From Patescibacteria group bacterium (lineage in GTDB: Bacteria; Patescibacteriota; Patescibacteriia; 2-12-FULL-60-25): a DNA stretch of 64,000 nucleotides. How positions within the stretch are numbered: the first letter of the stretch is position 1; every line of letters starts with the position of its first letter. The DNA lies in assembly GCA_049325475.1 (NCBI GenBank), contig JBMOLN010000007.1:95489-159488 (forward strand), given 5' to 3'. The position numbers were made by a program, and so were the translations under genes. Shown here piece by piece: positions 187 through 64,000 of this stretch. The notes beneath the pieces were generated by a model. The model did not search any database, was not told the origin of the DNA, and saw nothing but the letters and a program-made list of their open reading frames with translations.

Positions 187-305
187 CAACTAGAATCTAG
201 TGCCTAGCGACTAACATCACGTATCGTGCATCCTGTATCGTCTGACGATTCACGTTATACGTTGCGAGTTTCGCGAATTGAGTTCTTGTGTCTAGTATCT
301 AGAGT
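187..305. repeat. phased heptanucleotide stutter array (17 units)
   Basis: CAACTAG AATCTAG TGCCTAG CGACTAA CATCACG TATCGTG CATCCTG TATCGTC TGACGAT TCACGTT ATACGTT GCGAGTT TCGCGAA TTGAGTT CTTGTGT CTAGTAT CTAGAGT, unbroken phase. Confidence 0.85.
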
Positions 306-320
306 CCAACATCCATTCGT

Positions 321-1496
321 ATGACAGCCATGCCTAATCTGGTGCCGCCAATGCCCAACCGGGCACCTCAAATACCTCCGCATATTTTTTTGCAACGAAA
401 AAAGGTAAAAAACCGCCCTGATGAATTGCTAGAACGTGTTGTTGAATCGCATAGCCAACACATACCATATTTTGATTACAAGCGGGCTGTTCACTTGGTC
501 AAATCTGCTTTTGAATCCGCAAATCAAGGCCGGTTGCGCGAATTGGAATCCGAACTCCAAAACCGTATCATCCGTTACTTATCACACCAACCTTCACAGC
601 TGCAAACCGTAGTTCAAAAAATTTTTAGCAATGCGCAAACCGTAATTAAAGACCCGCGCTTTCGAGCCGGCGTGTCTCAAGAAATTAGCCACCTGCAAAG
701 CGGTATTATTTCTGTTATTGCTGTTTTACAAAATATTGAAAATAACTTTAGACGCAGACAAAGACTTGGAATGTTGCCGGCCGAACGAGAACTGTACCTA
801 GGGACAAATGATTATTTGGATGCTGCCAGATGTATTGATTTAATCGGTATTGAATACGATTCAGAAGGACCGCAAGCGATTGATCTGTATCAAGTTAAAA
901 GTCCAAAAATTACTCTAACACGTAAAGAAATTCAAGACATTCAAGACAATCATCAATTATTCGTTGATGAACTTGCTAGCGGCGAATATGCTTTTCGCTC
1001 TAAATTAACTACGCGAAATTTAAGTTTAGCCGAAAAAGAATTAAAAGAGTTTCTTGCCACTGCGGCTGAAAATAAAGAACATGAAAATGTTGCTGAATTC
1101 TTAAAAAGACATTCTGACCTTCTATTGGCATTATTAACCGAACCTCCTGCATCCTTTGAAGATGAGGCTATCGAAGAATACTTAACAACAAATGGAATGG
1201 ATAATCAATCGTTGATTGATCTGCATCTGCTGTTTCAACCCAAAAAATTCCATGTCGCTTGTCAATTATTATCCGAGTTGGGGCTTGGTACGCCCAATCT
1301 AGACGAAACCCAAATCAGAACCATGGAACAATTTCATTTATGGGCTCTGCAATATTTACCACCCGCTGAAAAACTAAAAGCCATTTATACTGATTTTGAA
1401 GTAGAACCACAATATATTACTCAAGATACACAATACCGATCAATCATCGATCATGGCGGCCCGCAAATCATAATGCCCATCCGGCCCGGCCGCTGA
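321..1496 (+). CDS. hypothetical protein (possible PD-(D/E)xK nuclease-like core)
   Basis: 391-aa ORF with no competing frame. The central segment CIDLIGIEYDSEGPQAIDLYQVKS resembles the D..(E/Q)xK core of restriction-endonuclease-fold proteins (by eye only). The rest is unrecognised. Confidence 0.6.
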   Translation: MTAMPNLVPPMPNRAPQIPPHIFLQRKKVKNRPDELLERVVESHSQHIPYFDYKRAVHLVKSAFESANQGRLRELESELQNRIIRYLSHQPSQLQTVVQKIFSNAQTVIKDPRFRAGVSQEISHLQSGIISVIAVLQNIENNFRRRQRLGMLPAERELYLGTNDYLDAARCIDLIGIEYDSEGPQAIDLYQVKSPKITLTRKEIQDIQDNHQLFVDELASGEYAFRSKLTTRNLSLAEKELKEFLATAAENKEHENVAEFLKRHSDLLLALLTEPPASFEDEAIEEYLTTNGMDNQSLIDLHLLFQPKKFHVACQLLSELGLGTPNLDETQIRTMEQFHLWALQYLPPAEKLKAIYTDFEVEPQYITQDTQYRSIIDHGGPQIIMPIRPGR

Positions 1497-4737: not shown

Positions 4738-5016
4738 TTACTTTTTAACTTCTGATACCTGACTTATCGACCTATCGACGTCCGACTTCGATATGTATTT
4801 GTTCACCGCATAAGCCAAATACCCCGTCGCCAAAGCAGTTATCCCAATATCATCCAGCCAACCCAAAATCGGCGCCAAATCCGGAATTAAATCCGCCGGC
4901 CAAATCAGATACAAAATCGCAAAACCTACCGCTGCCTTAGGCTTCCAATCCGTCTTTTTATCTTTAAAAAAATTAATTAAATTTTTCCAATATGGTATAA
5001 ATTTCGTATTTTTCAT
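4738..5016 (-). CDS. DUF1232/YkvA-family membrane protein
   Basis: 92 aa with a LIPDLAPILGWLDDIG motif typical of DUF1232. Sits 2 nt upstream of uppP. The C-terminal residues are encoded by a stutter array. Confidence 0.7.
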   Translation of the reverse strand: MKNTKFIPYWKNLINFFKDKKTDWKPKAAVGFAILYLIWPADLIPDLAPILGWLDDIGITALATGYLAYAVNKYISKSDVDRSISQVSEVKK

Positions 5017-7085: not shown

Positions 7086-7415
7086 AGTCTTACTATCTTA
7101 ATGTATAAACCAAGATTGTAAAAGTTCACCTGCAGTCCCGCTCCCTCGTTAACAGTGACCAGTGACCGGTCGCTGGATGCAACGTACGTTGACCCGTAGT
7201 CCGGTTAACCAGTTATCCGGATTACTGTTAAACGGGATTACTGCAATACGTTTTGGATTCGTAGTTTGTAGTTTGAGGTTAGAAATATTAAAAAACCTCC
7301 CAAAATAGGAAGGCGAGAATTATTTGCAATACCTGCTGAATATCCGCGGACCCGAATCGCTCACTCGTTGATGGCACATGCGTAGGAAATAATCACATTA
7401 ATCAAAATGTTAGCT

Positions 7416-9084: not shown

Positions 9085-9240
9085 TGACTAAAGCTATACC
9101 GCAAATTACTTGCATAGTCAATAACTCTCACCGCAGGCGTTGGACTCTGGACGCAAAACTCAAAACTCTAGACTCGAACTTCGTTAACCCGCAGTCCCGC
9201 CCTTAGTGTAGTCGTAGGAAGCGGCACGAGACGTTTCAAT

Positions 9241-9280
9241 ATCGACGTACTGACGTATCGACGTACCGACGTATTGACGA
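9241..9280. repeat. octanucleotide stutter array (5 units)
   Basis: ATCGACGT ACTGACGT ATCGACGT ACCGACGT ATTGACGA. Confidence 0.85.
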
Positions 9281-9334
9281 ATCATCCTCTTTTTGATATA
9301 CAAACCCCGGTACACTTCACAAAAGGAAAAGCCG

Positions 9335-10099: not shown

Positions 10100-10292
10100 C
10101 TTCTATTTTCAACTTCTCTTCATGAGAGTTTTTTTAATCCTGATTTTCATCTCGTTGACCCGTGATCCTGTTAACCCGTTAACCAGAGGTATTCTCGTGA
10201 TAACGGTTTAATCCCGCCACGAACGGGACCCCGCCTTCAAAAAAATATTTAAATTATTGTGGCGGGGCGGATATACTTGAGCACGATAAAAG

Positions 10293-10321
10293 TTGTTAGT
10301 TGTCAGTTGTCAGTTTATAAT
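10293..10321 (+). promoter_or_regulatory. sigma70-like promoter TTGTTA-17-TATAAT, ATG 6 nt downstream (leaderless-type)
   Basis: Hexamers at 10293-10298 and 10316-10321. ATG of the kinase-like gene is at 10328. Embedded in a GTCAGTT heptad stutter. Confidence 0.45.
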
Positions 10322-10327
10322 ATTGCC

Positions 10328-11895: not shown

Positions 11896-12034
11896 TCCAC
11901 CTCCCATAAAAGACTATCCAAATTCTCTTGTCCGGTCAACTAAAAACCCCCTCAAGATTTCAAGGGGGCAAAATCCGCCTTCACGTAATGAAGACGTATA
12001 GACTTCCGACTTATAGACGTCCGACGTTTAGAAG

Positions 12035-12153
12035 TCCGTAGTCCGCAGTCCGCAGTCCGTAATCCGAATTCAGAGTTCAGAGTTTAGAGTTCAGAATTCC
12101 TAGTTCGTGGTTCGTAATTCGTGGTTCGTAGTTCGAATTTCAAATCCTCAATT
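12035..12153. repeat. phased heptanucleotide stutter array (17 units, TCNNNNT)
   Basis: TCCGTAG TCCGCAG TCCGCAG TCCGTAA TCCGAAT TCAGAGT TCAGAGT TTAGAGT TCAGAAT TCCTAGT TCGTGGT TCGTAAT TCGTGGT TCGTAGT TCGAATT TCAAATC CTCAATT. The last units encode the C-terminus and stop of the ABC exporter. Confidence 0.9.
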
Positions 12154-22113: not shown

Positions 22114-22473
22114 TTAAGTTTCACTTAAATTCTTAATAAAACCGGCAATCATCTTTGAAATTTCAATTAATCTGTTTGATAGCCCATCAAAATCATCTGG
22201 AGAGATATAGTTCAACATAACCGCAAGATGCAGCATTGATCTTACTTCACCGCACGAGCCCTTGGCGATATTCAAATAATTTATAAATGCATTTGTTGTA
22301 CCCCCCTCATAGCCTTCCGCAATATTATTCATAACAGAAACCGCAGCACGTTGTATTTGATCTCTGAAAGAATAATCCTTGCAATCTTTAAATACTGCAT
22401 AAATTTCATAAGTTAAAGCCTTTGATTCCTGCCAGATCTTCATGTCCTCAAACTCAATGAACCTCATTACCAT
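22114..22473 (-). CDS. four-helix-bundle protein (23S rRNA IVS / Avd-like family)
   Basis: FRDQIQRAAVSVMNNIAEGYEG and KGSCGEV motifs characteristic of the TIGR02436-type family. Confidence 0.85.
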   Translation of the reverse strand: MVMRFIEFEDMKIWQESKALTYEIYAVFKDCKDYSFRDQIQRAAVSVMNNIAEGYEGGTTNAFINYLNIAKGSCGEVRSMLHLAVMLNYISPDDFDGLSNRLIEISKMIAGFIKNLSET

Positions 22474-23053: not shown

Positions 23054-23124
23054 ACTGAATTTACTTTAAACTGACAACCATCAACTAACAAGAGTCAAAT
23101 AATATCGCGAAGCGATACCAACAT

Positions 23125-27750: not shown

Positions 27751-27897
27751 AGATATTTCTTGCCTATTTATACGCAAAAAACTTATTCTTCTTTCACAAC
27801 TCTGTCAAGAGCAGACGCTAGACGCTGGACTCTGGACACTAAACTAAAGTACTCAATGCTCCGTGCTCCGTGCTCCGCGCTTGAATCCTCCGAAGCT

Positions 27898-28983
27898 TCA
27901 TGCAAAGGAGGACGTGCTCCGTGCTAAAAAATAGATACAATATACCAAATACAAAATACCTGTAGTGAAGTAAATAAAAAGATTCGCCCACCAAATATCT
28001 TTGATCGATAGCTGACCGCGGCTTCCCCCAACTTTGGGAATGCAAATCCTGCTCCCGTCTTGCGCAAAACAATCACCTCCAAGCTCGATATCCCGCGCTC
28101 CGGCAAATGTCACAATCGGAATCCCGCCATTTGGCGATGGTCCTTTTTGCGCGTCTCTCCTCCAAGCTTTTATCGCCAAAAACGGATGTTGTTTGGTGAA
28201 AAATGCTGCAGCGGCTATGAGCGCTCCGGTAATCCGTGCCGGTATCCAATTCACAACATCATCGGCCTTGGCCGAAAACCAACCGAAATCACGATACTTT
28301 TCATTTTTATAACCCACCATTGAATCCAAAGTATTTATCGCTTTATAGGTTAGCGCCAACGGCCCTCCGCCGATCATGGCAAAAAATAACGGCGCAATAA
28401 TTCCATCTGACAAATTTTCTGTCAATGTCTCAATCGTTCCGCGGATTATTCCTTGTTCATCTTCACGTGAGCAATCGCGGCTGACGACTGTCTGCAAACG
28501 ATTTCTGGCCGCTTGCAAATCTCCACGGCGCAGCAGACCTACAATCACCCGCCCTTCTGCTGTCAGCGACCTTATAGCTAAGGCATAAAATATCATAATT
28601 ACATTTACCGCCACGCCAAGTCTCCAATCAATAATTATGCTAATGATATAAATCGCACTTGTAATAATCAGTGTCACATCAACAACAACCAACCATAAAA
28701 TAATCCCTGCGGCTTTCAGCTTACGAGCCGTATCTGTGTATCGTGTATCGTGTATCTTGTATCTTGTATCCTGCATCGTCTGACGTTCAGCTGAAGGTTC
28801 GACGTTTCGCGTTTCACGTTTCGCGATTTGCACTTCCTTCTGTCCTTCAACCTTTGTCCTTAATCCTTTTTCAATAAATGAAATAAACGCCCCCATCCAC
28901 CTAACCGGATGCGGAAGCCATTTTGGATCGCCCAGAATCAAATCCAAAGCAATTGCCAGCAATATTAAGTAAATATCTGCCAT
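27898..28983 (-). CDS. cbiB: adenosylcobinamide-phosphate synthase (CbiB/CobD family) with in-frame repeat insertion
   Basis: ILGDPKWLPHPVRWMG N-terminal signature and polytopic layout. About 40 extra residues after the first conserved loop are encoded by a heptad stutter array. Confidence 0.8.
   Translation of the reverse strand: MADIYLILLAIALDLILGDPKWLPHPVRWMGAFISFIEKGLRTKVEGQKEVQIAKRETRNVEPSAERQTMQDTRYKIHDTRYTDTARKLKAAGIILWLVVVDVTLIITSAIYIISIIIDWRLGVAVNVIMIFYALAIRSLTAEGRVIVGLLRRGDLQAARNRLQTVVSRDCSREDEQGIIRGTIETLTENLSDGIIAPLFFAMIGGGPLALTYKAINTLDSMVGYKNEKYRDFGWFSAKADDVVNWIPARITGALIAAAAFFTKQHPFLAIKAWRRDAQKGPSPNGGIPIVTFAGARDIELGGDCFAQDGSRICIPKVGGSRGQLSIKDIWWANLFIYFTTGILYLVYCIYFLARSTSSFA
28730..28828. 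repeat. phased heptanucleotide stutter array inside the cbiB coding sequence (14 units)
   Basis: GTATCTG TGTATCG TGTATCG TGTATCT TGTATCT TGTATCC TGCATCG TCTGACG TTCAGCT GAAGGTT CGACGTT TCGCGTT TCACGTT TCGCGAT. Translated in frame on the minus strand, including DTRYKIH/DTRYTDT. Confidence 0.85.
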
Positions 28984-29040
28984 GCATTGACATTAGCCTA
29001 AAATCATGCCAGAATGCAAGACACCAACAAAGGAGATCGG

Positions 29041-29778
29041 ATGCATCATGTAAAGCGCAAACCCGACTTTACTATGCTAAGTTTTGCCAAACCGATTTCC
29101 TGCTTAAGCTGGGCGCCCCTTGGCGGCGGCAGACGCAACGGAATTCGTTTTGTGGTCAATCGCACCTTGCCAAAAAATGATCTGCGGCCCTTGCCGGTTC
29201 TTCAAGCCGACACCGAACAATTCATCGCCGAACGCGGCATGAGGTTGCCCGAAACCGTGGCCATGCTCACCACCGCCTCACAAAAGTTTCTCGGCTGTTC
29301 CATTGCTCGCAACAACAAAGGCTTGCTCATGGTCGCACTTTGCACCGTGGGCTTGGGCAATGCCGTAGCTCCCGGAGATCACGCAGCCTATGATGAAGAA
29401 CGCGGGCAAACCCCGTCCTCATCCGGCACCATCAATATCATTTTGACCTTAAACCGCAACTTGACCGAAAACGCCGCACTCGAGCTCATGCATACCATGG
29501 CCATGGCCAAAGCTTCAATCATGGTCGAACTCGGTCTTGTAAACCGGCACGGTCAACTAAAGCTGGCCACGGGCACGGATTGCCAGGTCCTCTGCTGGGA
29601 CCAAGATCATGAAATCACTTTGGCATACGCCGGCATGCACACCCGGCTCGCCGAACTGGCCGCCGGGGCAGTCCGCAAAGCCATGCTCGAATCCATGGCC
29701 AAGCGCCTCGGCGCTGAATATTCCAACGATTCCGAGCTGCTCCGGCTGGCTCGCTCTCGCTTTACCGCTACCCGTTAG
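29041..29778 (+). CDS. adenosylcobinamide amidohydrolase-like protein (CbiZ-like)
   Basis: Divergent from cbiB. LSWAPLGGG resembles the CbiZ N-terminal motif. The assignment rests partly on context. Confidence 0.5.
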   Translation: MHHVKRKPDFTMLSFAKPISCLSWAPLGGGRRNGIRFVVNRTLPKNDLRPLPVLQADTEQFIAERGMRLPETVAMLTTASQKFLGCSIARNNKGLLMVALCTVGLGNAVAPGDHAAYDEERGQTPSSSGTINIILTLNRNLTENAALELMHTMAMAKASIMVELGLVNRHGQLKLATGTDCQVLCWDQDHEITLAYAGMHTRLAELAAGAVRKAMLESMAKRLGAEYSNDSELLRLARSRFTATR

Positions 29779-29911: not shown

Positions 29912-29922
29912 GGTAATCGGAT

Positions 29923-30006
29923 GCTAGTCGCTAGATACTAGATGCTAGTAGCTAAATTCCAAATACCAAATACAAATATTGAATTGCTAATTGCTAATTG
30001 CTAATT
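29923..30006. repeat. phased heptanucleotide stutter array (12 units)
   Basis: GCTAGTC GCTAGAT ACTAGAT GCTAGTA GCTAAAT TCCAAAT ACCAAAT ACAAATA TTGAATT GCTAATT GCTAATT GCTAATT. Confidence 0.9.
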
Positions 30007-43354: not shown

Positions 43355-43819
43355 TTAAGCCGCTACAGCAACCCGCACCGGTTCTGTAGTTGCCGGCGCC
43401 TCATTTTTTTCTGATTTTTTCTTGGGATTTTCAATTGTATAAATGAGAGCCGACAGCATTTTGTAAATCACGGTATTTGTTTCCTTCAGCCGGTTAACCG
43501 TTTCTTTATGTTCCGGAAACAAATCACTTATAAGCATCAACGAAGTTTCGCAAACCGCGGTATTGTTGCGCGCATAATTCAAATGCTTTACAAACTCATC
43601 TTTAACTCTCTTCTGCTGTCCCTGCGCAATTTGCGCCGACATGGAGAGAGCCGCGCGGTTTAATTGCGCTGCAAGTGCATACCTCTCCTCTTGCGGCAAA
43701 GCATGAACCAACTCATGCACGCCCTTGGCAAATTCAAATGCCTGTTGCCAAACCACCAAATCTCGAAACGATGTTTGCTTATATTCTTTTTTTTGTGAAG
43801 TATTGTTTGAAGTAGTCAT
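43355..43819 (-). CDS. four-helix-bundle protein (23S rRNA IVS / Avd-like family)
   Basis: FRDLVVWQQAFEFAKGVHELV...AAQLNRAALSMSAQIAQG. Start is probably MTTSNN rather than the upstream M. Confidence 0.75.
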   Translation of the reverse strand: MTTSNNTSQKKEYKQTSFRDLVVWQQAFEFAKGVHELVHALPQEERYALAAQLNRAALSMSAQIAQGQQKRVKDEFVKHLNYARNNTAVCETSLMLISDLFPEHKETVNRLKETNTVIYKMLSALIYTIENPKKKSEKNEAPATTEPVRVAVAA

Positions 43820-43909
43820 ATACGTAGTAATAAATGTATTGCGCGTTTGAAAGCTGACCATGACGTTAGCACGTCTTCCCGTTCATCTGTACTCCGGAAA
43901 ACTTTAAGG

Positions 43910-44263
43910 TTAAGGCGGTCGTAAATGAAAAATTAACTTCGATAACATTCTAATAATATAATTGCTTCTTTCATAAATAACTTTATGGGTTGCTTCATTA
44001 ATGTATTTAAAGCGCAGAGCCAAACACAACAAAGACCGAACTTCACTGCAAGATCCTTTTGCAATAAATAAAAACCTGACGAATTCTTTATTCGAATCTC
44101 TTTCAAAGCCTTCCGTGATATTGCTGGATACAGATACGCTGGCTCGACGAATTTGATCATTAAAGGACCAATCTCGACACAATCTAAATGCCTCAAAAAC
44201 ATCAACAGCTAATTCCATTGATTGTTGCCAAGCTTTAATATCTTCAACTTGTTTAAAATTCAT
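43910..44263 (-). CDS. four-helix-bundle protein (23S rRNA IVS / Avd-like family)
   Basis: FNDQIRRASVSVSSNITEGFER and KGSCSEV motifs. Confidence 0.8.
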   Translation of the reverse strand: MNFKQVEDIKAWQQSMELAVDVFEAFRLCRDWSFNDQIRRASVSVSSNITEGFERDSNKEFVRFLFIAKGSCSEVRSLLCLALRFKYINEATHKVIYERSNYIIRMLSKLIFHLRPP

Positions 44264-44359
44264 ATTTGTTGACTGTATTAACTCTGGTTAACGGGTATAC
44301 GGGACTACTGATCAACTTGACTCGAGTCCTGAATCCATCATTCAAGTTTAAGCCTCTAG

Positions 44360-45887: not shown

Positions 45888-46265
45888 TTAGCTTTTAGCC
45901 GATAGCTTATAGCCATCGTTATAAATGCTATTTAAAAAACCATTCAACATCTTTAATAACTCAACCACTTCACTTAAAATATCACCCATCTCATTCTTTT
46001 TTATATATTCCAAATCTACTGCCAAATAAATCATAGACTGAACCTCAACACATGATGCTTTCGCTATACGTAAAAAATAAACAAGTTCACGATCATTTCT
46101 TCTTGCGTAACCCTCGGCTATGTTATTCATAACAGAAAGTGACGCTCGTCTTATTTGATCTCTAAAACCAAAATCTCTACTATCTGAAAATAACTTATAG
46201 ATACGTACTGTTAATTTTCTCGCTTTTTGCCACACTAACAAGTCTTTAAACGAAATGATCTTCAT
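45888..46265 (-). CDS. four-helix-bundle protein (23S rRNA IVS / Avd-like family)
   Basis: FRDQIRRASLSVMNNIAEGYAR and KASCVEV motifs. The last ~10 residues are encoded by a TAGC-word stutter. Confidence 0.85.
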   Translation of the reverse strand: MKIISFKDLLVWQKARKLTVRIYKLFSDSRDFGFRDQIRRASLSVMNNIAEGYARRNDRELVYFLRIAKASCVEVQSMIYLAVDLEYIKKNEMGDILSEVVELLKMLNGFLNSIYNDGYKLSAKS

Positions 46266-46522
46266 ATATCTTATTCTGATATAAACCGATCGCCATCAGC
46301 TAACAGCTATCCGCTATCGGCTAAGTAAAAAAGAAGCCCTTCCGGCTCCTTCGTCTTTGCACCTATTACTATTGTAACGAGAGATAAATGTTTTGCAAGT
46401 TAATTAACAATTCCCAAAACTTTCTATACTTTTCTTAACAAACAGCAACATTTTTTGTCATCTTATTTCAACAATCCACAAACAAACTTCCGACGTATCG
46501 ACGTCCGACGTATCGACTTCCT

Positions 46523-47020: not shown

Positions 47021-47061
47021 ACTACTATAAACTTACAACTGACAACTTACAAGAGTAAATC

Positions 47062-47085
47062 AAAAAAACAGAGCTGCCTCTGTTT
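47062..47085 (-). terminator. intrinsic terminator
   Basis: Minus strand AAACAGAG-gcag-CTCTGTTT followed by a T run. Downstream of the dksA-like gene. Confidence 0.6.
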
Positions 47086-50861: not shown

Positions 50862-51036
50862 GATCCTGATTTACAGCACGTTTCTCCGTAGTCCTGTTAA
50901 CCCGTATTCCGGAGTCAACTCTGGACAACGATTTACGGTTGCACTGGAATACGTTGTATATTCGTAGTTCATGACGTAGGACGTAGGACGATTGGGACGA
51001 ACCCTCGCACCGTACGGTGCAGGGCGTGCGACAATA

Positions 51037-51612: not shown

Positions 51613-51647
51613 TAGAATCTAGAGTCTAGAATCTAGAGTCTCGAGTC
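51613..51647. repeat. heptanucleotide array (TAGAATC TAGAGTC TAGAATC TAGAGTC TCGAGTC)
   Basis: Ends 7 nt before the rsmE stop codon. Confidence 0.85.
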
Positions 51648-51653
51648 TGCCAT

Positions 51654-52349
51654 TCAGTTGCAAGCCATATAACTCGCAACAATCGCCGCCGTCTCGGCTC
51701 TTAAGGTTAAACTTCCCAAATTTTGCAATAAAAAACCCGCCCTTTTTGCTTGCTCAACTTCCATGTCACTCCATCCACCTTCCGGCCCGATCCAAACTCC
51801 CGCTCTTTGCGGATTCTTCTGCGTCGGCGCTTCAGACTCAATGTTTAAATCATAAAAATAATTCACTTCATGATCTCTCGCCCGTTCCATTGCCGATGCT
51901 AAAGGTATTGGATCGTTTACAAGCGGCACATGCCCCCTGCCCGATTGCTCGGCCGCTTCTTTGGCAATTAATCTTACCCTGTCCATTTTTAAACTTTGCT
52001 TGACTGTTCTTTCAGTGATGATCGGCACAATCTCCCAAACCCCGACTTCAGTCGCCTTCTGCACCACTAACTCAAAATTCTCTCTTTTCAAAACCGCGCA
52101 GAATAAAAAAACTTTTTTAGATGTTTCGACGCTGATCTCTTTTGCATCTTCTAAAATAATCGTAACCGACTTTTTATCGATACTATCAATCCTCCCCACT
52201 GCTTCACGTCCATATCCGTCACATAAAATTAACGCTTGTCCCGTCTGCATGCGTAAAACTTTTGTTACTTGATGCGCAAAATCCTTGTCATCAATAACAA
52301 GTTCTTTTTTATTTAAATCAAATTTGCCGATAAATCGATGTAACTTCAT
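51654..52349 (-). CDS. rsmE: 16S rRNA (uracil1498-N3)-methyltransferase
   Basis: MKLHRFIG start, PUA-like N-domain, IGPEGGWSDMEVEQA SPOUT motif. Confidence 0.85.
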   Translation of the reverse strand: MKLHRFIGKFDLNKKELVIDDKDFAHQVTKVLRMQTGQALILCDGYGREAVGRIDSIDKKSVTIILEDAKEISVETSKKVFLFCAVLKRENFELVVQKATEVGVWEIVPIITERTVKQSLKMDRVRLIAKEAAEQSGRGHVPLVNDPIPLASAMERARDHEVNYFYDLNIESEAPTQKNPQRAGVWIGPEGGWSDMEVEQAKRAGFLLQNLGSLTLRAETAAIVASYMACN

Positions 52350-52459
52350 AAACTTATCGTACAACGTACATCGTACATTGTACAAAGTCCATAGCAATCA
52401 CTGACTGCCGTCTAACGACAATCGTCAATCAAATAATAATCCTGCTGATCATTTTAAAA

Positions 52460-56601: not shown

Positions 56602-56830
56602 AAACTAACGCATTACGTCGTACGTCTATACGTCAGAAGTCTAAAATTCAGACTTCCGACTTATCGACTTATTGACGTTTGTGTTGCTTGCCCTGAAACT
56701 AAATCCCGCGCCGTGGCACGTGATGTAATTTTACGTGCTCTTTGGATCCCTGTCTCAGGACAAACTAATAAACTTAATTAACTAATTTAATCCACCGTCC
56801 AGCGTCACTCGTCCCACGTCATTGTGTTAA

Positions 56831-56865: not shown

Positions 56866-57000
56866 GTATCGGCGCGCCTTTATAATGGCACGATTAAGCC
56901 AAATAGTCAAAACCGACCTCGTATCCCTGTGCATCCGTTAAACCGTTATACCGAGAATAGCTCTGATTAACGGGTCAACGGGAATACTGGCCAACTTGTC

Positions 57001-57112
57001 TCGAATCTAGCTTCTAGAGTCTGACATTGTGTATCCTGTATCGTGTAACGTCTGACGTTTCGCGCTATACGATTCGCGATGCGCGAACAGAGTTCTAGCG
57101 TCTAGCGTCTAT
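57001..57112. repeat. phased heptanucleotide stutter array (16 units) with the same word order as 187-305
   Basis: TCGAATC TAGCTTC TAGAGTC TGACATT GTGTATC CTGTATC GTGTAAC GTCTGAC GTTTCGC GCTATAC GATTCGC GATGCGC GAACAGA GTTCTAG CGTCTAG CGTCTAT. The last unit contains a stop codon. Confidence 0.85.
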
Positions 57113-57606
57113 TTAGCCAATAAGTAACTCTTTATCGCCTTTACAACTTTCGAATCTTCTTTCAAATCTTCAACAAAAAGAATATGCTCGCGATTAATAT
57201 ACATCCTATCCTCCGGACCATGTAATTCATTCCCTAACTTGATTATCTTTAAATCACCTTGGCCTTCAATAATTCCATTGGCCGAAGCCCTGTCTGTTTG
57301 CAAATAATAAATATTTTTCAACACCAGTTCTTCTTCGGTTTTTTCCGTTATCATTCCAAAATAAACTTGCCCGTTAGACAAAAACACAGCCTGATACTCG
57401 CCTTCATAAACAGCTTCATCCGCAACATCTGTTTTATCTTCTTGAGCTTCGCTGGCCGGCGTAATGGCTTTAAAAAACCCGAACGCCCCGATTAACAAAA
57501 TCGCCGCCGCCCCGGCTCCAAAAAAGAACAGCTTAAGATCTACCGCAGGTTTATGATCTTGATTTTCAATTTTCGGCTCTTGAGCCTCTATTTTTTTACT
57601 TGGCAT
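57109..57606 (-). CDS. membrane-anchored hypothetical protein
   Basis: 165 aa with a single TM (LFFFGAGAAAILLIGAFGFF). Immediately downstream of the giant gene. Confidence 0.6.
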   Translation of the reverse strand: MPSKKIEAQEPKIENQDHKPAVDLKLFFFGAGAAAILLIGAFGFFKAITPASEAQEDKTDVADEAVYEGEYQAVFLSNGQVYFGMITEKTEEELVLKNIYYLQTDRASANGIIEGQGDLKIIKLGNELHGPEDRMYINREHILFVEDLKEDSKVVKAIKSYLLAK

Positions 57607-57620
57607 ATAAATTTAACTAT

Positions 57621-57676
57621 CAGCTATCAGCTATCAGCTATCAGCTATCAGCTAACAGCTAACAGCTAACAGCTAA
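57621..57676. repeat. two-state heptanucleotide array: CAGCTAT x4 then CAGCTAA x4
   Basis: Exact units read directly, between the giant-gene stop and the next gene's start. Confidence 0.95.
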
Positions 57677-57770
57677 CCTTAGTATATCAAAAAAACAACC
57701 CCTTTCAAAGAGGCGCTCTTGTCATTGTCTCCCGGTCACTGGACTATGACTACGACTAAGTACTATGACA

Positions 57771-60700
57771 TTATTGATCGGTTGTCGTTGTCGTATCCGC
57801 ATTTGCTTCCGCTTCCGGCTCCGTTCCATCAGCCGCAACCTCATCAACTGTCTCTGTACCGGTAACTTCAGACTCCGCCACTGTATCAACAATAACCACT
57901 TCCGGCTCGTCCGGTTCTTCAGGAACTGCAATTATTTCTAGCTCATCAGACTCCGTGCTTGAATCCTCCATAGCTTCATGCGAAGGAGGACGTGCTTCAT
58001 GCTCCGTGCCGTCTTGTGTTGTTGTCGCCTCATCAACCAACACTTCTCCCAAAACATCCATATCATATTCAATCTTGGATGATCCCATTTCCGTTACTTC
58101 TATTTCCAATGTCGTGCCATTGCTCACAAACACCTTGCTATCATCATTGCCAAACGCATGCCAGTTAAACAATGTATCCTCATAAGTCTTATCACTTAAA
58201 ATGATATCAAATCCCTGCAAAGTAATATTTTTTACGCCGTATTGGAATTCGTGCAAGCCGACCGGAGTTATCGTCACGATGGGCAAAGTCTCATATTCAC
58301 CTTTAAACGAAACATGAACTTCCGACTCACCCGACATGATCAAAGCCTGACCCACCGTATCTCGGCCAAATACCATATGCTTTTTAACCGTCACAGTTCC
58401 CTCAAAAATCGCTCCGGCCACATGCAAATCAGGAATATCTCCTTCTTTCAGTTCACCGCCTTGCAAAGTTATTCCCAACACCGACGACTGAATTTGCTGA
58501 TCCAGATTATTCTTGGAGAACGAATCAAAGAATACCGCCATCTTCACATGCTTCACTCCATTAATTTCGGCTTCAACCTTGGACCAATCAACATTTTCCG
58601 CGGCTCTGGCCACAACATAGCTCACCGGCTCATCTTGCAAATCTTTCATGGCATGACCCGCAACATCGGATGAAACCAGGTAATCGCCGACTCTGATATT
58701 TTTGCCGTTATCGGCAACCCAAATTTCACCCTTGCCTGCCGCCATTACAATATGCGGATTATCCTTGCTCGGAGTCAATTTTGGTTCCAAAACACTTACA
58801 TAAGCACCCATAACTTCCGCATCATTGGCCTTAGTGCAAAGCTTAACCCCGTAAACATACTGCGAATCAGCTCTGTCGTGCAATCTCTTATTCTCGCCCG
58901 TCATCACAACCAGCATTCCGCTCGAAATTTCATCATCAGTCCAAGCATAATGCGACCCGGTAAATGCATTGTAAGAAACCACACTTCCATAAATGGATAT
59001 GGTTCCTTCTTCATAATCATCCTGCTTTAAAGATATAATCTTGCCGTCATTGGAAACCCTGCTGAACGCGGCTACCGCCCCGCCAACTCTGCGGACGTCT
59101 AATGGCAATTCCGGCACCACAACTCCGATTCCCAAATTACCGGCAAAGAAATTCAATTTACCCGATTCATTATAAATTGAATAATCCGCAGTGGGTGCCG
59201 TACTCGTGCCGATCAATAAATTCGTATTATAAACCGCCGCCGTCTGTTCTTCCACCGTTATACCGCTTAATCTGGAAATCTTACCCGTGCCAGAATTAAT
59301 TGCGGACCGAACCATTAAACCATGAGCATAGGTAATCGATCCGTCACCGCCGTTCATAACTCCCAACGTAGCCCCCATGGCATCATGCACCAAGCCGGAA
59401 CCTTCATTAACAGCCATAGCCTCCAAACCGACCAAACCCTGCAGTAAAGCCGCCTGCTGGTCGCTGTTCATGCTGGCAACCGACTTCATTCCTTTGGCAT
59501 ATCCGCCCGCTGAAGTTATCCTTGCACTCATTTGCGAATACAAACCTACAGCGTTCTCTTGAGCCTCCTTAAGCTCATCGCTGACTTGCAATTTGGCTTC
59601 CGGCGCGTCTGTACCGATGCCGACCTTGCCATCCGTCTTGATTGTTAATGCGCTCAAATCCTTATTGCCAATAGTCAGATCTCCCAGCTCGTTTTCCGAC
59701 AAACTCCAAGCCGCAGCACCGATATTCAATTTCTCCGTCCATACATTGGACCATTGATTTTCCTTGGCGCCCAAAGAAAACGCGTTCGTCACCTGCGGCA
59801 GCAAATCACCCGTGCTTGTTCCGCCGCGGAACGATAGCGCCCAATTCGTTTCATTGCCTCTCTCCGCAATCGAATCCAATGTATCCATTTCATAATACAA
59901 GGGAGTACCCGTGGCAAACTGCACCCAGCCGTTGGATAAACCGTCCCCCGATTGCTTAATGTACGTCGTGCCATTTACCGTATCAACCGCCAAGTCACCG
60001 ATATTGCCGGCTACCAATCCTTCCGGAGATTTATCAACTCTGTACACTTCAAAATCACCGCCCGCATTTTCAAATGTGGCTATGGCGTTCTCTGATTCCT
60101 GATTGGAATCAACATGTAATTTTGATTTCGGTTTTTCTGTGCCAACAGCCAATGATCCGGCCAAATAAGTATTGCCCTTGGAATCCACGCTTGCCGCTTT
60201 TGTTCCGTCCGAACTTGTAAAAACAAATTCCGTATTTCCGTCATTATCCCCCAGCACAACATTCACATTACTGCCCAATTCGGTTTGCAGTTTTAATGAA
60301 TTATCAAATGAATTGTATCCGATCTGCGATTGTCCGTCTTTGCCGTTAAACTTAACAACCTTGTCTTTGTTCATCCAAATATTTTCTTGAACTTCTATAT
60401 TCTTAATCTTGGCATCGCCGTTCACATCCAATTCCACAGTCGGATTATCCATATTGATTCCAATGCGGTGATTTAAGGTATCAACCGTCATAATGGGAGT
60501 TCCGCCGTCCGCATCCATAAACAAAACTCCTTGCGCCGAATCAAATAACGGCCGCAAAATTATCTGATCTCCTTGCGGCATCAAATACAAATCCGAATTT
60601 TCGGTTGTCAGCACCGTGGCCTTGCCCAATGCCGTCTCCAAAGAGAAGAAATAACTTTGTTCACTGGCCGGATTCAAATCAAAACTTTGCGAGAGTATAT

Positions 60701-63700
60701 CGCCCGTTGCCAAGGAAATCGGCTTTTCTGCCGCTAAAGCTCCATTGGTCAGCATCTGCAACGATGAAGTACTGCCTTGCAAAGTTAATCCCGCCAAATC
60801 AGCGCTTAATGTTTGTTGCAATAACCATATGCTGGATGCCGCGCCCACAGAATTTATGGCAAAACCGCTCTTTTGCACGCCAAAGCTGGTTCGAACAAAC
60901 ATCATCACCGTTCCGGTTGTTGCTCCATTGGCTGTGCTGGATGTAAACGATTCCATTGCTTGGCCAAGTATCATTCCTGATTCACTGGATTTCATGGCAT
61001 AACCCGGAATTGATGCTGATGTCAGGTTGTCGCCGACTTTAATTTCGCCGTTCTCCAAACTGACTTTTACAGGAACGCGACCTACCAAAGCAATGGGCCT
61101 GGCATTTTCATCTTTGGGACCGGAAAGCAAGAAACCCGGCTTGGTGGAAACAACACCAACCAAACTTGATTCATACGGCATTGAAGATTTTTTAACATAA
61201 CCTTCCCACACGTCATCCAAAGCCACAACGTCCCCGGCTTCCAGCGTGGGGTCTGCCGATGGATACATTTCCGCCAAGTCATAAGCGCCCGCATCCGTAA
61301 TTATTCCATGCGAGAATTTAAACGCGCCGATTGATTGGGAATCCCCGGCACCGCTCATACTGTAAGCCTCATTATCAAACCAAACCGAGCCCGTGGCATT
61401 TCCCGCTTCAAAAGCAATATCATACGAACCGGTTCTGGCTGTCTGATAATACCAAACTTCTCCATCACCCGAACTGTTGCCTCGTCCCGCATAAAGATAA
61501 CCATTAAAATCCGCAAAGGCGTATGTAGCCTCAAAGCCGGTTCCCGCATCCGAAAGATACGCATTGGAAACATCATATTTATATATCTGTCCGCCGCCCG
61601 CTGTTGTTCCTTCATATCCCATAAAAAGGAAACCGTCATAGCTTAGCAAAGCCGGAATGCGATAAACACCGCTGCCATTATTTTGTGAAACCGCAATATC
61701 ATACGTGCTATCGCAGAGCGTTGGCAAGCCCAAAACTCCCGGATCGCAGCTGTACAAATCTCCATCTCCGCTGTCATTACCGGCTCCAAAATATAACAAA
61801 CCCCTATAGACCGCTGCGCTCTCAAAAGAGTCGTAATTAGAATACGGATCCGCTAAACTTACAGACCAGTCGGAAGAGCTGTCGCAACGGCCGGCATCTC
61901 CGGCTGCCGTTGAATCGCACAACATTAAATCATTATCCGAACCGTTACTGTTGCCCATCAAACCATATAAACGATTGTTAAAAACCGCGAGCGCCGGCAA
62001 CTCTTCATATCCTGAAAAGGAAATATTCGTCCAATCCGAGGAATTATCGCAAATATTCGCATTGCCCGCCGCGGCCGGATTACAAACTCCCACACTGCCG
62101 CTGCCCGAGGATCCCGTATCATTGGCAGCGTATAAATAATTATTGAACTCAATAATCTGACGGATTCTGTACGGTCCGGATGGGAACGAGGCATCATTCC
62201 AATCACCGCTTTCGCAAATATCCGCATCACCCGTTAGCCCCGGATTACAATAATATATATCACCCTCTCCGGCATCATCGCCAAAACCCGCATATAGATA
62301 ACCCTTATATGCGTATAAAGTATTTACTTGGTCATAACCCGTATTATAAGCCTGCGACCAATCTGCTGAATTGTCGCAAACCGCTGTATTTCCTCCCGCT
62401 GTCGGATCGCAAACATATATATCACCTTCACCTCCGCCATCGCCCCGTCCCGCATACAAGTGGCCTTTATATGACACTAAAGATCTGACCGACTCATAAC
62501 CGCCTCCTGATAAACCCGTATTTGTCCAAGTGGTTTCGGTTCGAGACGGCGCCGTGCCCATTATCAAAGTATCGTCCATCCTGCCGTCAAAACCTCCGCC
62601 TGATGATGTCACTGCCGAAATCGCCGCATCCAAATCCGCCAGCACTCCCTGAACTGTCGTGGCATTGGAATTATCAAATTCGTCAAACACTCCAACCAAT
62701 GCCGCGCCCGATGTCCATGGCGATGTGCCGATAGCATCCAACCTGATTCCTCCGATGGATAAGAAATCCGTCAATGCCAACGACGTTCCGGAAGCTGAAG
62801 CAAAAATCAAATCATTTAAATATGAAAGTCCGGCCACATTCAAAGTATTTTGAATGATAAGCCCCGCGGTCGAAGTCCCGCCGGCAAATTGCAAACCATG
62901 AGTTGTAATCGCTCCACGATCTGTCACATATTGCAAATCAATATTTGCAACCGTTGTCGATACTGTTTGCAAATCAGTTTGAGTGCCCGCAAGGCTTGAG
63001 GAAACACTGGCGATATCCGCCGTATTCTGCGCTATGCTGGATGTTGCGTTGGCAAGATCGGTTTGAAGATTGGCAATATCGCCGGTCACGTTAACTAAAT
63101 TTGAAATTGTCGTTGCGAGCGTAGAAGAAACAATCGCGATTTCCGCTGAAATGGATGCCAGAGTCGATGTTGCCGCGGCCAATTCGGAAATTGCATAAGT
63201 AATATCATTCGCATTTTGTGAAATCCAATCATCAAAATCCGCCAGCACTCCTTGCACCGTCCCTGCATTCGAGTTGGCAAATTCGTCAAACACGCCAATC
63301 AAAGTCGCTCCGCTGTTTGTATTATTTGTTCCAACAGCGTCGAGCTTAATGCCGTTTATTGTCAGATAAGATGACAGCGCGAGAGCCGTACCCGTTGCAT
63401 AATCAAAATCCAAATTATCGATTGCAAAATTCGTTGCTTCTAAGTTTGTTGCAAATAAATTTGTCGTTGTCGCATTGCTTGCGATAAATTCCGCGCCCGC
63501 GGCTGAATTAAATCCAAAAGTCGTTGCGTAAAGATCAGTTGATGTTGCGGCGGTAAAGAGTGAGTAATCAGCATCCAAAGTCCCTTGCACGTTAAAGTCA
63601 GACGTTGATGTGCCTCCGGCAAATTGTATAGCCAAAGAAGTCACATTGCCCTCTTCTGTCACCTGCTGAAATGTCGGCGTAGAAGTCGCGATCTGCTGGC

Positions 63701-64000
63701 CGTTCACATAAATGGCCGTGGTGGAGACAACTCCCGAAACCGATAAATTTGTTGTGGTCACATTTGTCACATACATGCCGAGCCAGCGGTTGGCAAAAGA
63801 ACCCAGTTCATAAATATCCGGCGCCGAAGGCAATAATGCTGAATTTACGAATCCCAGCACAGCCAAATCCGTAGTCGTTGCCGTAATAAACGATGCGCCG
63901 TTCGCGTCAACTGTTCCGGCTATTGTCGTGTCCGTGCCAATACTGACTTTGGCGGTAGATGTTGCTCCCGTATACCCGATTGTTAAATTTCCATTTAAAG
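57771..64000 (-). CDS. giant fibre/propeller surface protein, 5'-truncated by window edge
   Basis: The frame stays open from 63866 to 64000 (hand-translated; the track's M is an internal TTG). More than 2070 aa, with duplicated ~150-aa N-terminal modules, Ser/Thr/Ala coiled segments, ~7 Cys-paired Kelch-like blades, recurring G(I/L)GT..P..KL(H/Q)V motifs and an acidic tail. Confidence 0.85.
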   Translation of the reverse strand, partial: LNGNLTIGYTGATSTAKVSIGTDTTIAGTVDANGASFITATTTDLAVLGFVNSALLPSAPDIYELGSFANRWLGMYVTNVTTTNLSVSGVVSTTAIYVNGQQIATSTPTFQQVTEEGNVTSLAIQFAGGTSTSDFNVQGTLDADYSLFTAATSTDLYATTFGFNSAAGAEFIASNATTTNLFATNLEATNFAIDNLDFDYATGTALALSSYLTINGIKLDAVGTNNTNSGATLIGVFDEFANSNAGTVQGVLADFDDWISQNANDITYAISELAAATSTLASISAEIAIVSSTLATTISNLVNVTGDIANLQTDLANATSSIAQNTADIASVSSSLAGTQTDLQTVSTTVANIDLQYVTDRGAITTHGLQFAGGTSTAGLIIQNTLNVAGLSYLNDLIFASASGTSLALTDFLSIGGIRLDAIGTSPWTSGAALVGVFDEFDNSNATTVQGVLADLDAAISAVTSSGGGFDGRMDDTLIMGTAPSRTETTWTNTGLSGGGYESVRSLVSYKGHLYAGRGDGGGEGDIYVCDPTAGGNTAVCDNSADWSQAYNTGYDQVNTLYAYKGYLYAGFGDDAGEGDIYYCNPGLTGDADICESGDWNDASFPSGPYRIRQIIEFNNYLYAANDTGSSGSGSVGVCNPAAAGNANICDNSSDWTNISFSGYEELPALAVFNNRLYGLMGNSNGSDNDLMLCDSTAAGDAGRCDSSSDWSVSLADPYSNYDSFESAAVYRGLLYFGAGNDSGDGDLYSCDPGVLGLPTLCDSTYDIAVSQNNGSGVYRIPALLSYDGFLFMGYEGTTAGGGQIYKYDVSNAYLSDAGTGFEATYAFADFNGYLYAGRGNSSGDGEVWYYQTARTGSYDIAFEAGNATGSVWFDNEAYSMSGAGDSQSIGAFKFSHGIITDAGAYDLAEMYPSADPTLEAGDVVALDDVWEGYVKKSSMPYESSLVGVVSTKPGFLLSGPKDENARPIALVGRVPVKVSLENGEIKVGDNLTSASIPGYAMKSSESGMILGQAMESFTSSTANGATTGTVMMFVRTSFGVQKSGFAINSVGAASSIWLLQQTLSADLAGLTLQGSTSSLQMLTNGALAAEKPISLATGDILSQSFDLNPASEQSYFFSLETALGKATVLTTENSDLYLMPQGDQIILRPLFDSAQGVLFMDADGGTPIMTVDTLNHRIGINMDNPTVELDVNGDAKIKNIEVQENIWMNKDKVVKFNGKDGQSQIGYNSFDNSLKLQTELGSNVNVVLGDNDGNTEFVFTSSDGTKAASVDSKGNTYLAGSLAVGTEKPKSKLHVDSNQESENAIATFENAGGDFEVYRVDKSPEGLVAGNIGDLAVDTVNGTTYIKQSGDGLSNGWVQFATGTPLYYEMDTLDSIAERGNETNWALSFRGGTSTGDLLPQVTNAFSLGAKENQWSNVWTEKLNIGAAAWSLSENELGDLTIGNKDLSALTIKTDGKVGIGTDAPEAKLQVSDELKEAQENAVGLYSQMSARITSAGGYAKGMKSVASMNSDQQAALLQGLVGLEAMAVNEGSGLVHDAMGATLGVMNGGDGSITYAHGLMVRSAINSGTGKISRLSGITVEEQTAAVYNTNLLIGTSTAPTADYSIYNESGKLNFFAGNLGIGVVVPELPLDVRRVGGAVAAFSRVSNDGKIISLKQDDYEEGTISIYGSVVSYNAFTGSHYAWTDDEISSGMLVVMTGENKRLHDRADSQYVYGVKLCTKANDAEVMGAYVSVLEPKLTPSKDNPHIVMAAGKGEIWVADNGKNIRVGDYLVSSDVAGHAMKDLQDEPVSYVVARAAENVDWSKVEAEINGVKHVKMAVFFDSFSKNNLDQQIQSSVLGITLQGGELKEGDIPDLHVAGAIFEGTVTVKKHMVFGRDTVGQALIMSGESEVHVSFKGEYETLPIVTITPVGLHEFQYGVKNITLQGFDIILSDKTYEDTLFNWHAFGNDDSKVFVSNGTTLEIEVTEMGSSKIEYDMDVLGEVLVDEATTTQDGTEHEARPPSHEAMEDSSTESDELEIIAVPEEPDEPEVVIVDTVAESEVTGTETVDEVAADGTEPEAEANADTTTTTDQ

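Follow-up and report, generated by a model that had tools for sequence, protein, structure and literature searches.

Two distant places in the same stretch of a small bacterial genome run through one ordered series of degenerate seven-nucleotide words, which raises the question of whether such a series can arise more than once or has been copied. The window, that is, the whole stretch of DNA analysed here, comprises 64,000 nucleotides. An earlier note on this DNA had pointed out that arrays at 187-305 and 57001-57112 share their word order, and both are indeed found there, running from CTAG-words through GTATC-words, CGTCTGACG, ACGTT/TTCGCG-words and GAGTTCT to CTAG-words again. The note offered two readings of these arrays, either copies of one ancestral dispersed element that then stutter or a generative process with a fixed grammar, and placed the central part of the series a third time in an insert within the gene cbiB. 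The sequences concerned, together with related modules, are the following.

190 to 301, plus strand: copy A, full length, 16 heptads
190 to 216, plus strand: left arm of copy A, made of CTAG-words
about 277 to 305, plus strand: right arm of copy A, ATTGAGTTCT plus CTAG-words
57000 to 57111, plus strand: copy B, full length, 16 heptads
27898 to 28983, minus strand: cbiB, adenosylcobinamide-phosphate synthase (Pfam CobD_Cbib, E = 2.6e-89), host gene of copy C
28720 to 28842, plus strand: copy C, an insert of about 123 nt within cbiB, antisense to the gene
27813 to 27857, minus strand: right-arm module ATTGAGTACTTTAGTTTAGTGTCCAGAGTCCAGCGTCTAGCGTCT standing alone just 3' of cbiB, with an adjoining (CGGAGCA)n array in place of the core
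29919 to 29950, no strand assigned: free-standing CTAG-word array GCTAGTC GCTAGAT ACTAGAT GCTAGTA GCTAA, best non-self match of the left arm of A
51613 to 51648, no strand assigned: free-standing CTAG-word array TAGAATC TAGAGTC ×2, TCGAGTC, best non-self match of the left arm of B (nhmmer E = 0.007 to the arm)
56938 to 56995, minus strand: copy of a second repeat family (ACGTTGACCCGTAGTCCCGTTAACCCGTTA…ATAACGGTTTAACGG), abutting the left end of B, 83% complementary to 10154-10211 and part of a six-copy alignment

The host is an Uhrbacteria-like member of the Patescibacteria, and the PNPase encoded beside copy B is 64-67% identical to proteins from Patescibacteria and Candidatus Uhrbacteria MAGs. 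The window, cbiB included, lies on a 741-kb contig of a reduced genome. The plus strand shows a GC skew of -0.14 to -0.21 throughout, and the majority of genes are on the minus strand. Heptad arrays are pervasive in the window, with 20 arrays at lag 7 versus 0 at lags 4-6. They cover 9.4% of intergenic versus 0.7% of genic DNA, and the exact tandem pairs found in the 64 kb involve about 25 different heptad words.

Copies A and B consist of sixteen degenerate 7-nt words each, and align in register and without gaps at a constant offset of 56,810, with 84 of 112 positions identical (75%). Self-identity at lag 7 amounts to 0.56 in A, 0.59 in B, and 0.64 in C, versus 0.25±0.04 (maximum 0.45) in shuffled sequences. 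Shared words were separated from shared order by permuting the heptads of one copy over 2000 rounds. The local alignment score of 84 between A and B was reached by none of the permuted sequences (24±5, maximum 55), and for the remaining pairs of heptad arrays within the window the median score is 12 and the highest 46. Since the score of A and B lies far above both the other array pairs and the shuffles, these two copies descend from one sequence. The contention of the earlier note that independent microsatellite birth cannot reproduce the word order is borne out by this result, the similarity being far better than that between random pairs of arrays. A joint profile returns A and B with nhmmer E-values of 8e-36 and 3e-35, which are circular because the profile was built from these two copies. 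The same profile also recovers copy C, at E = 2e-7 over profile positions 27-86. Despite their 25% divergence A and B are free of indels, which hints at a constraint on length, and so at a function.

Copy C contains seven GTATC-words, CGTCTGACG, a local TTCAG-CTGAA palindrome, and TTCGCG-words, without CTAG arms. The 22-nt core, GYATCNTGYAWCGTCTGACGWT, which is degenerate, occurs exactly three times in the window with 0 expected, and lies without mismatch in copy C at 28766-28787. A three-way MAFFT alignment mis-registers C by heptads, so that its relationship to A and B rests on the profile hit and the exact core. As tests of order alone, the comparisons of A with C and of B with C are marginal, 59 and 132 of 2000 shuffles, respectively, reaching the observed scores. 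The claim that the cbiB insert carries the central part in the same order and orientation therefore stands as far as the word types, their strand, the core and the profile hit are concerned, with the order test contributing little by itself.

The host protein of copy C is intact, with 361 aa versus 303-334 aa in its closest relatives. An alignment of orthologues places the insert in the loop between the conserved R42 and A92-G93, where nine of the 11 closest orthologues have no insert at all. In the frame used, copy C has no stop, and its translation on the minus strand leaves the ORF intact and adds about 41 hydrophilic residues (…KRETRNVEPSAERQTMQDTRYKIHDTRYTDTARK…), the GTATC-words being read as DTRYKIH/DTRYTDT. 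Copy C is a diverged, arm-less relative of A and B that keeps the reading frame in a loop of CbiB where an insert is tolerated, and its insertion is a de novo event in a conserved gene. A search of the insert peptide against 1.84 billion proteins gave five weak matches, all of them proteins with 7-residue repeats. One of these, P0181, carries in-frame (CGATACA)n and other heptad arrays and not the element; its gene on a Logan contig (L091 413-706) includes several in-frame composite arrays. The CbiB orthologues P0003 (L088 822-889) and P0006 (L086/L087) have a different array, (ACGGAGC)n, in the same loop, where it is read as RGARSTE repeats, which makes the loop a recurrent site for such arrays. 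The same word, as (TGCTCCG)n, is present just 3' of cbiB in the window at 27857-27881.

Two further observations concern the surroundings of cbiB. The gene is divergently adjacent to cbiZ (adenosylcobinamide amidohydrolase, 28984-29778), with which it forms a cobinamide salvage pair, and this arrangement is kept in L086/L087. A 53-nt repeat with a CCTCC…GGAGG hairpin occurs at 27873-27925 and 57951-58003 with 89% identity. Its first copy supplies the last eight codons and the stop of cbiB, and the other lies in the 3' part of a giant ORF (57771-63866, minus strand). This ORF is devoid of Pfam domains and has relatives among Patescibacteria proteins of 1,300-3,500 aa (most 1,900-3,500 aa). The best matches cover only 16-47% of the query, and no recorded product begins at this start; the gene therefore probably continues beyond the end of the window or starts elsewhere. 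A search with this giant surface protein for paralogues on other contigs gave no match from the same genome.

The two full copies are also palindromic. Each contains an imperfect palindrome of about 55-60 nt, with the centre WWCGTC-T-GACGWW at the same position and a perfect inner part of 13 nt. In A, the palindrome is centred on T243 of ATCGTC-T-GACGAT, and its dyad of 17/25 was reached by three of 500 dinucleotide shuffles. In B, the centre is T57053 of AACGTC-T-GACGTT, and the dyad of 20/28 was reached by none of 500. Copy C has a dyad with its own centre, at CAG-CTG (17/26, 0/500 shuffles). The significant dyad of A and B is thus central, not terminal. Arrays of CTAG heptads form the arm at either end; in A the two arms are about 11/15 complementary, but CTAG is itself palindromic and here periodic. 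This tetranucleotide is 5.4-fold under-represented in the window (44 observed versus 237 expected from base composition), and 19 of the 44 occurrences fall in four heptad arrays. Since 7 cannot be divided evenly by 3, each CTAG heptad is in another frame than the one before it, and three in a row, as in the left arm of A, produce a stop in all three frames of both strands. Stop codons are present in all six frames of A and B.

As plus-strand RNA, both A and B fold into a single long hairpin with the centre CUGACG. The fold of B is more stable on the plus strand (-36.8 versus -28.8 kcal/mol) because of G-U pairs, and A shows no strand preference. The folding energies are not better than those of shuffled sequences (z = -0.43 for A and -1.48 for B), and the consensus structure from the two sequences is weak, at -13 kcal/mol. 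A known RNA family was rejected for A and B, as the Rfam 15 covariance models gave nothing at E ≤ 1 around either copy; tRNA-His was the only hit in the window at gathering score. An intrinsic terminator at A or B was likewise rejected, with no terminator-like site on either strand and no T-run after the element, and so was a sigma-70 promoter inside it.

The gene context differs among the copies. Copy A occupies a divergent intergenic region, 16 nt upstream of an ORF at 321-1496 (plus strand). Copy B is located just past the 3' end of an ORF at 57109-57606 (minus strand), whose TAG stop is the last CTA of the copy, and lies between this stop and the promoter region of pnp. Copy C is antisense within a coding sequence. 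The arms are also found apart from the centre. The lone right arm beside cbiB matches the right arm of A at 23 of 30 ungapped positions, and that of B at 21 of 22 aligned bases plus one 1-nt gap. The CTAG array at 29919-29950 sits between the terminator hairpin of cbiZ and the next promoter-like array, and that at 51613-51648 just 3' of an ORF at 51654-52397 (minus strand). At a distance of a few bases from either end of A and B the motif (C)CAA(C/T) is present, at unequal offsets in these two full copies and with the left one of B lying within the adjacent second repeat family; as a sign of transposition it is suggestive. No clear target-site duplication was found at either of the two full copies.

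The copy number of the element was approached through the contigs of a biofilm metagenome run, the only public run containing the genome, which were matched to A and B at 80% likeness at least. The central part of about 60 nt is matched by 15 contigs at the centre of B and by 22 at that of A, with summed depths of 858 and 1721, respectively, versus about 46-63 in the flanks. The depth of the window itself in this run is about 60×. Among the matching contigs listed, depths are mostly 46-69, apart from two contigs of about 60 nt at 87-91. Because these contigs have the depth of the window, they most likely come from the same genome. The central part is suggested to be present about 14-31 times in the genome, and the repeat to number roughly 10-30 copies, estimates derived from contig depths and not from an assembled genome. 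Several contigs, among them the ones with pnp and the ORF at 321-1496, end within the element, which is what a repeat would cause. Another two agree with B over its right half (4 mismatches in 50 nt and 2 in 35 nt); past 57111 they depart from the window sequence and, like A, go on with GAG. On copy A the matches of other contigs end at 193 (left) and 300 (right), and these limits agree within a few bases with the ends given by the alignment of A and B.

Length differences between copies amount to 7, 7, 35, and 56 nt, all of them multiples of seven: one copy has an extra TGTATCG, one is shorter by exactly 7 nt, and two are expanded by 35 and 56 nt. When the arms alone were used as queries in the same run, no contig besides their own locus was matched. 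The element family is therefore modular, with a multi-copy centre, arms that are much more variable, and one right arm standing alone. Copies of one dispersed element that subsequently stutter, as the earlier note put it, are supported by the collinearity of A and B, the multi-copy centre, and the steps of seven; the unit, however, is a mosaic and not a fixed one, and copy C is diverged and lacks the CTAG arms.

Outside this genome the element was not encountered. It is absent from the pnp loci of 80 relatives, and in those of the two closest, with a PNPase identity of 64-67%, heptad arrays are lacking. The 22-nt core pattern gave 0 matches in 185,579 reference genomes and 0 in viral contigs, a search by which diverged copies would be missed. 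Four matches in metagenome contigs have no heptads around them and look like chance.

Other repeats of the window show related features. The second dispersed family, of about 60-90 nt, has six copies (7187-7245, 10153-10211, 43864-43898, and 50879-50940 on the plus strand; 44279-44316 and 56938-56995 on the minus strand). CCGT recurs every 7 nt in its consensus, ACGTTGACCCGTAGTCCCGTTAACCCGTTATCCGGAG…ATAACGGTTTAACGG. An IVP gene lies between two of the copies, and another copy is directly adjacent to B. An array family with an 8/15-nt period (TCCGACGTATCGACG and variants) is found at five loci (4747-4798, 9238-9283, 11987-12037, 46471-46521, and 56615-56678). In promoter-like modules at 10283-10323 (plus strand) and at 23064-23109, 47025-47070, and 57652-57697 (read on the minus strand), a TATAAT-like box directly follows a heptad array, for example (TCAGTTG)n, that often begins with ACTCTTG. 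For the modules at 10283 and 23064, the two that were measured, the box ends about 6-10 nt before ATG, a spacing that suggests leaderless or very short-leader mRNAs. Heptad arrays also occur beyond this lineage. A Bacillota MAG has two units of about 150 nt (L039 7557-7711 and 8267-8421), each with inverted (GTCAGAA)n arrays about 90 nt apart, and another MAG (L021 17820-17892) has a back-to-back inverted pair of TAG-words ending in ACTCTTG.

The reading that accounts best for these data, to which a probability of roughly 60% can be given, is that A and B belong to a lineage-specific palindromic interspersed repeat, similar to RPE, MITE, or REP sequences, which spreads by duplication and stutters in 7-nt steps in a genome with several families of heptad arrays. 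New sites would be reached through duplication, brought about by a trans-acting enzyme encoded outside the window or else by template switching or gene conversion from one heptad array to another. The latter route would explain the mosaic arms, which fit it at least as well as transposition. Copies may then expand and contract by slipped-strand mispairing in 7-nt steps, and those with CTAG arms would be confined to intergenic DNA, since the arms terminate any reading frame. At odds with this explanation, the window encodes no transposase, the copies show no clear target-site duplication, and their inverted ends are only periodic CTAG words. A Pfam scan of about 57 ORFs in the window found neither a transposase nor a RAYT nor a reverse transcriptase. 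The element is most likely selfish or neutral DNA, which is favored over a regulatory site or an RNA gene by the lack of a common gene position or orientation, the mosaic nature of the family, and the failure to find it outside this genome. Some heptad arrays, flanking a 23S_rRNA_IVP gene, are conserved across genomes, and hence not all arrays in this lineage are junk.

Several classes of known repeats resemble the element in part. Rickettsia palindromic elements (RPEs) are palindromic and interspersed, measure about 100-150 nt, and number in the tens in a small genome; they are located in intergenic DNA and also in frame within conserved genes, to which they add a peptide segment (PMC10969869). 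Copy C recalls them by its position in frame in a CbiB loop, a tolerant site of a conserved gene with the ORF left intact. RPEs, however, have neither 7-nt periodicity nor length changes by whole units, each of their families encodes a conserved peptide, and their host is an alphaproteobacterium instead of a Patescibacterium; here, a single in-frame copy is known. Homology of A and B to RPE families was not detected, either as an Rfam match or as a match of the core pattern in reference genomes. MITE, REP/REPIN, ERIC, and Correia sequences are short, non-coding, multi-copy, mostly intergenic repeats with dyad symmetry, in which truncated and size variants are common (PMC10969869; PMC3116915). 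The element is like MITEs in being about 112 nt long and non-coding, with a centre matched by 15-22 further contigs. It differs in that its terminal inverted repeats are ambiguous, clear target-site duplications were not seen at the two full copies, and neither a cognate IS nor a RAYT was found in the window; internal heptad periodicity is not a feature of those families. REP/REPIN sequences are imperfect palindromes of 20-40 nt, usually paired and associated with a RAYT (IS200/IS605-like), whereas here palindrome arms of 25-28 nt lie in a 112-nt unit and no RAYT-like Pfam match is present in the window.

Arrays of heptamers have been described in Beggiatoaceae, Cyanobacteria, and Bacteroidetes, some of them mixed assemblages found again as near-identical intergenic regions, with no mechanism evident (PMC4679880). 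The arrays studied here share with these STRR/TAACTGA repeats a genome-specific preference for 7-nt units, a mostly intergenic location, often near start codons, and the presence of stop codons in one orientation with translatability in the other (PMC4679880). The tandem 7-nt units are equally evident here, from the lag-7 identities of 0.56-0.64 versus 0.25 in shuffles. Tandem pairs of the known words CCCCAGT, TTGGTCA, CAACAGT, and TAACTGA number 0 in the window. The host phylum is another one, and a degenerate composite of about 16 words is here dispersed as a unit and palindromic. In Nostoc, small dispersed repeats (SDRs) of 21-27 nt, very small and mobile-looking, were reportedly found by Elhai and co-workers in 2008 to be inserted into heptamer arrays. 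The likeness lies in very small, mobile-looking repeats tied to heptameric tandem repeats; SDRs are inserted into arrays, whereas here the arrays themselves make up the repeat. The tandem repeats of Borgs are genome-specific and fast-evolving, and occur in intergenic DNA and in ORFs, where they form disordered peptide inserts (PMC9879509). They differ in being perfect, with varying unit lengths, genic units divisible by three, and no dispersal as composite units. The literature searched does not describe dispersed or heptamer repeats for genomes of the Candidate Phyla Radiation. The element thus combines the behaviour of an RPE- or MITE-type repeat with the architecture of a heptamer array, and belongs to neither group: it is set apart by the absence of RPE homology and because the defining features of MITE and REP sequences are lacking or not established.

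An alternative, which is unlikely, regards the arrays as protein-binding operators with one unit per 7 nt, the palindromic centre as a dimer site, and A and B as a regulatory module shared by neighbour genes. Heptad arrays are targets of ribbon-helix-helix repressors, among them omega of pSM19035. The binding of heptamer repeats by cold-shock OB-fold proteins has also been discussed (PMC4679880). Such a role would suit the perfect 13-bp palindrome with its odd centre in both copies, where a compensatory T-A to A-T change has occurred, the many other arrays lying directly against TATAAT boxes, the words kept in three genomes by the IVP-flanking arrays, and the equal length of A and B at 25% divergence. 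Against this, about 25 different tandem heptad words in 64 kb are too many for one regulator in a small genome, the arms are mosaic, and neither position nor orientation relative to genes is shared by the three copies, one of which lies within a coding sequence.

A functional RNA is less probable still. In that case, the plus-strand transcript would form one long hairpin acting as a small RNA, an RNase III processing site, or a terminator/insulator, as the folds of both full copies, the greater plus-strand stability of B, four pairs with double changes between A and B, and a TATAAT box about 115 nt upstream of B on the plus strand might indicate. The z-scores are not significant, however, the consensus is weak and A has no strand preference, covariation from two sequences has almost no power, and neither an Rfam match at E ≤ 1 nor a T-run nor a terminator-like site accompanies the hairpin. 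That the copies have no common descent, and that word-independent 7-nt tandem duplication plus selection yields the same grammar at several sites, is very improbable. In its favor, heptad arrays are pervasive, further composite arrays with gradual morphing are found at 11970-12150 and in L091, arrays of CTAG-words occur by themselves, and back-to-back inverted arrays are present in an unrelated MAG. Against it, the agreement of A and B holds for single bases across the non-periodic transitions, without any shift of register, only recent copying explains the two further copies that match the right half of B so closely, and the heptad-order shuffles, none of which comes near the score, largely refute it.

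A further lead concerns the 23S_rRNA_IVP (PF05635) genes, a four-helix-bundle, Avd-like family. Four of these genes are present in the window, all on the minus strand (22114-22473, 43355-43861, 43910-44263, and 45888-46265), and they are only 23-44% identical to each other. Three of the four are bracketed by inverted heptad arrays or by inverted copies of another repeat family, two of these more weakly. The inverted arrays around the gene at 22114-22473 match at 30 of 41 bases, a 12-nt exact inverted match within GCTAWCA-word arrays brackets the gene at 45888-46265, and two second-family copies around that at 43910-44263 show a weak 12/15 match. In two related genomes, the orthologous cassette has inverted (CAAATAG)n-CAAGAGT arrays matching at 30/31 (L088 2709-3200) and 30/35 (L086 17511-17871), and the bracketing words are conserved across three genomes. 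Inverted pairs of heptad arrays are also found in unrelated MAGs, those of the Bacillota MAG enclosing about 90 nt. The 23S rRNA intervening sequence with such a gene is flanked by inverted repeats. An intervening sequence carrying a gene of this kind is treated in PMC4990558. The resemblance of the IVP cassettes to it suggests, without proving, that A and B are gene-less versions of array-bounded cassettes. The proposal that heptad arrays are the ends of an unrecognised mobile or RNA-processed cassette, with A and B as its gene-less, back-to-back form, is nevertheless a doubtful one. If true, a recombination or processing machinery would recognise, or generate, 7-nt-periodic termini.

Heptamer repeats have no identified mechanism in the literature searched. 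Here, a reduced genome devotes about 9% of its intergenic DNA to 7-nt-periodic sequence, with several dispersed families, and in the family of A and B descent, 7-nt stutter, modular recombination, and in-frame insertion into a conserved enzyme are all visible together. As orthologous CbiB proteins of two related genomes carry a different array in the same loop, heptad arrays are a recurrent source of new protein segments in this lineage.
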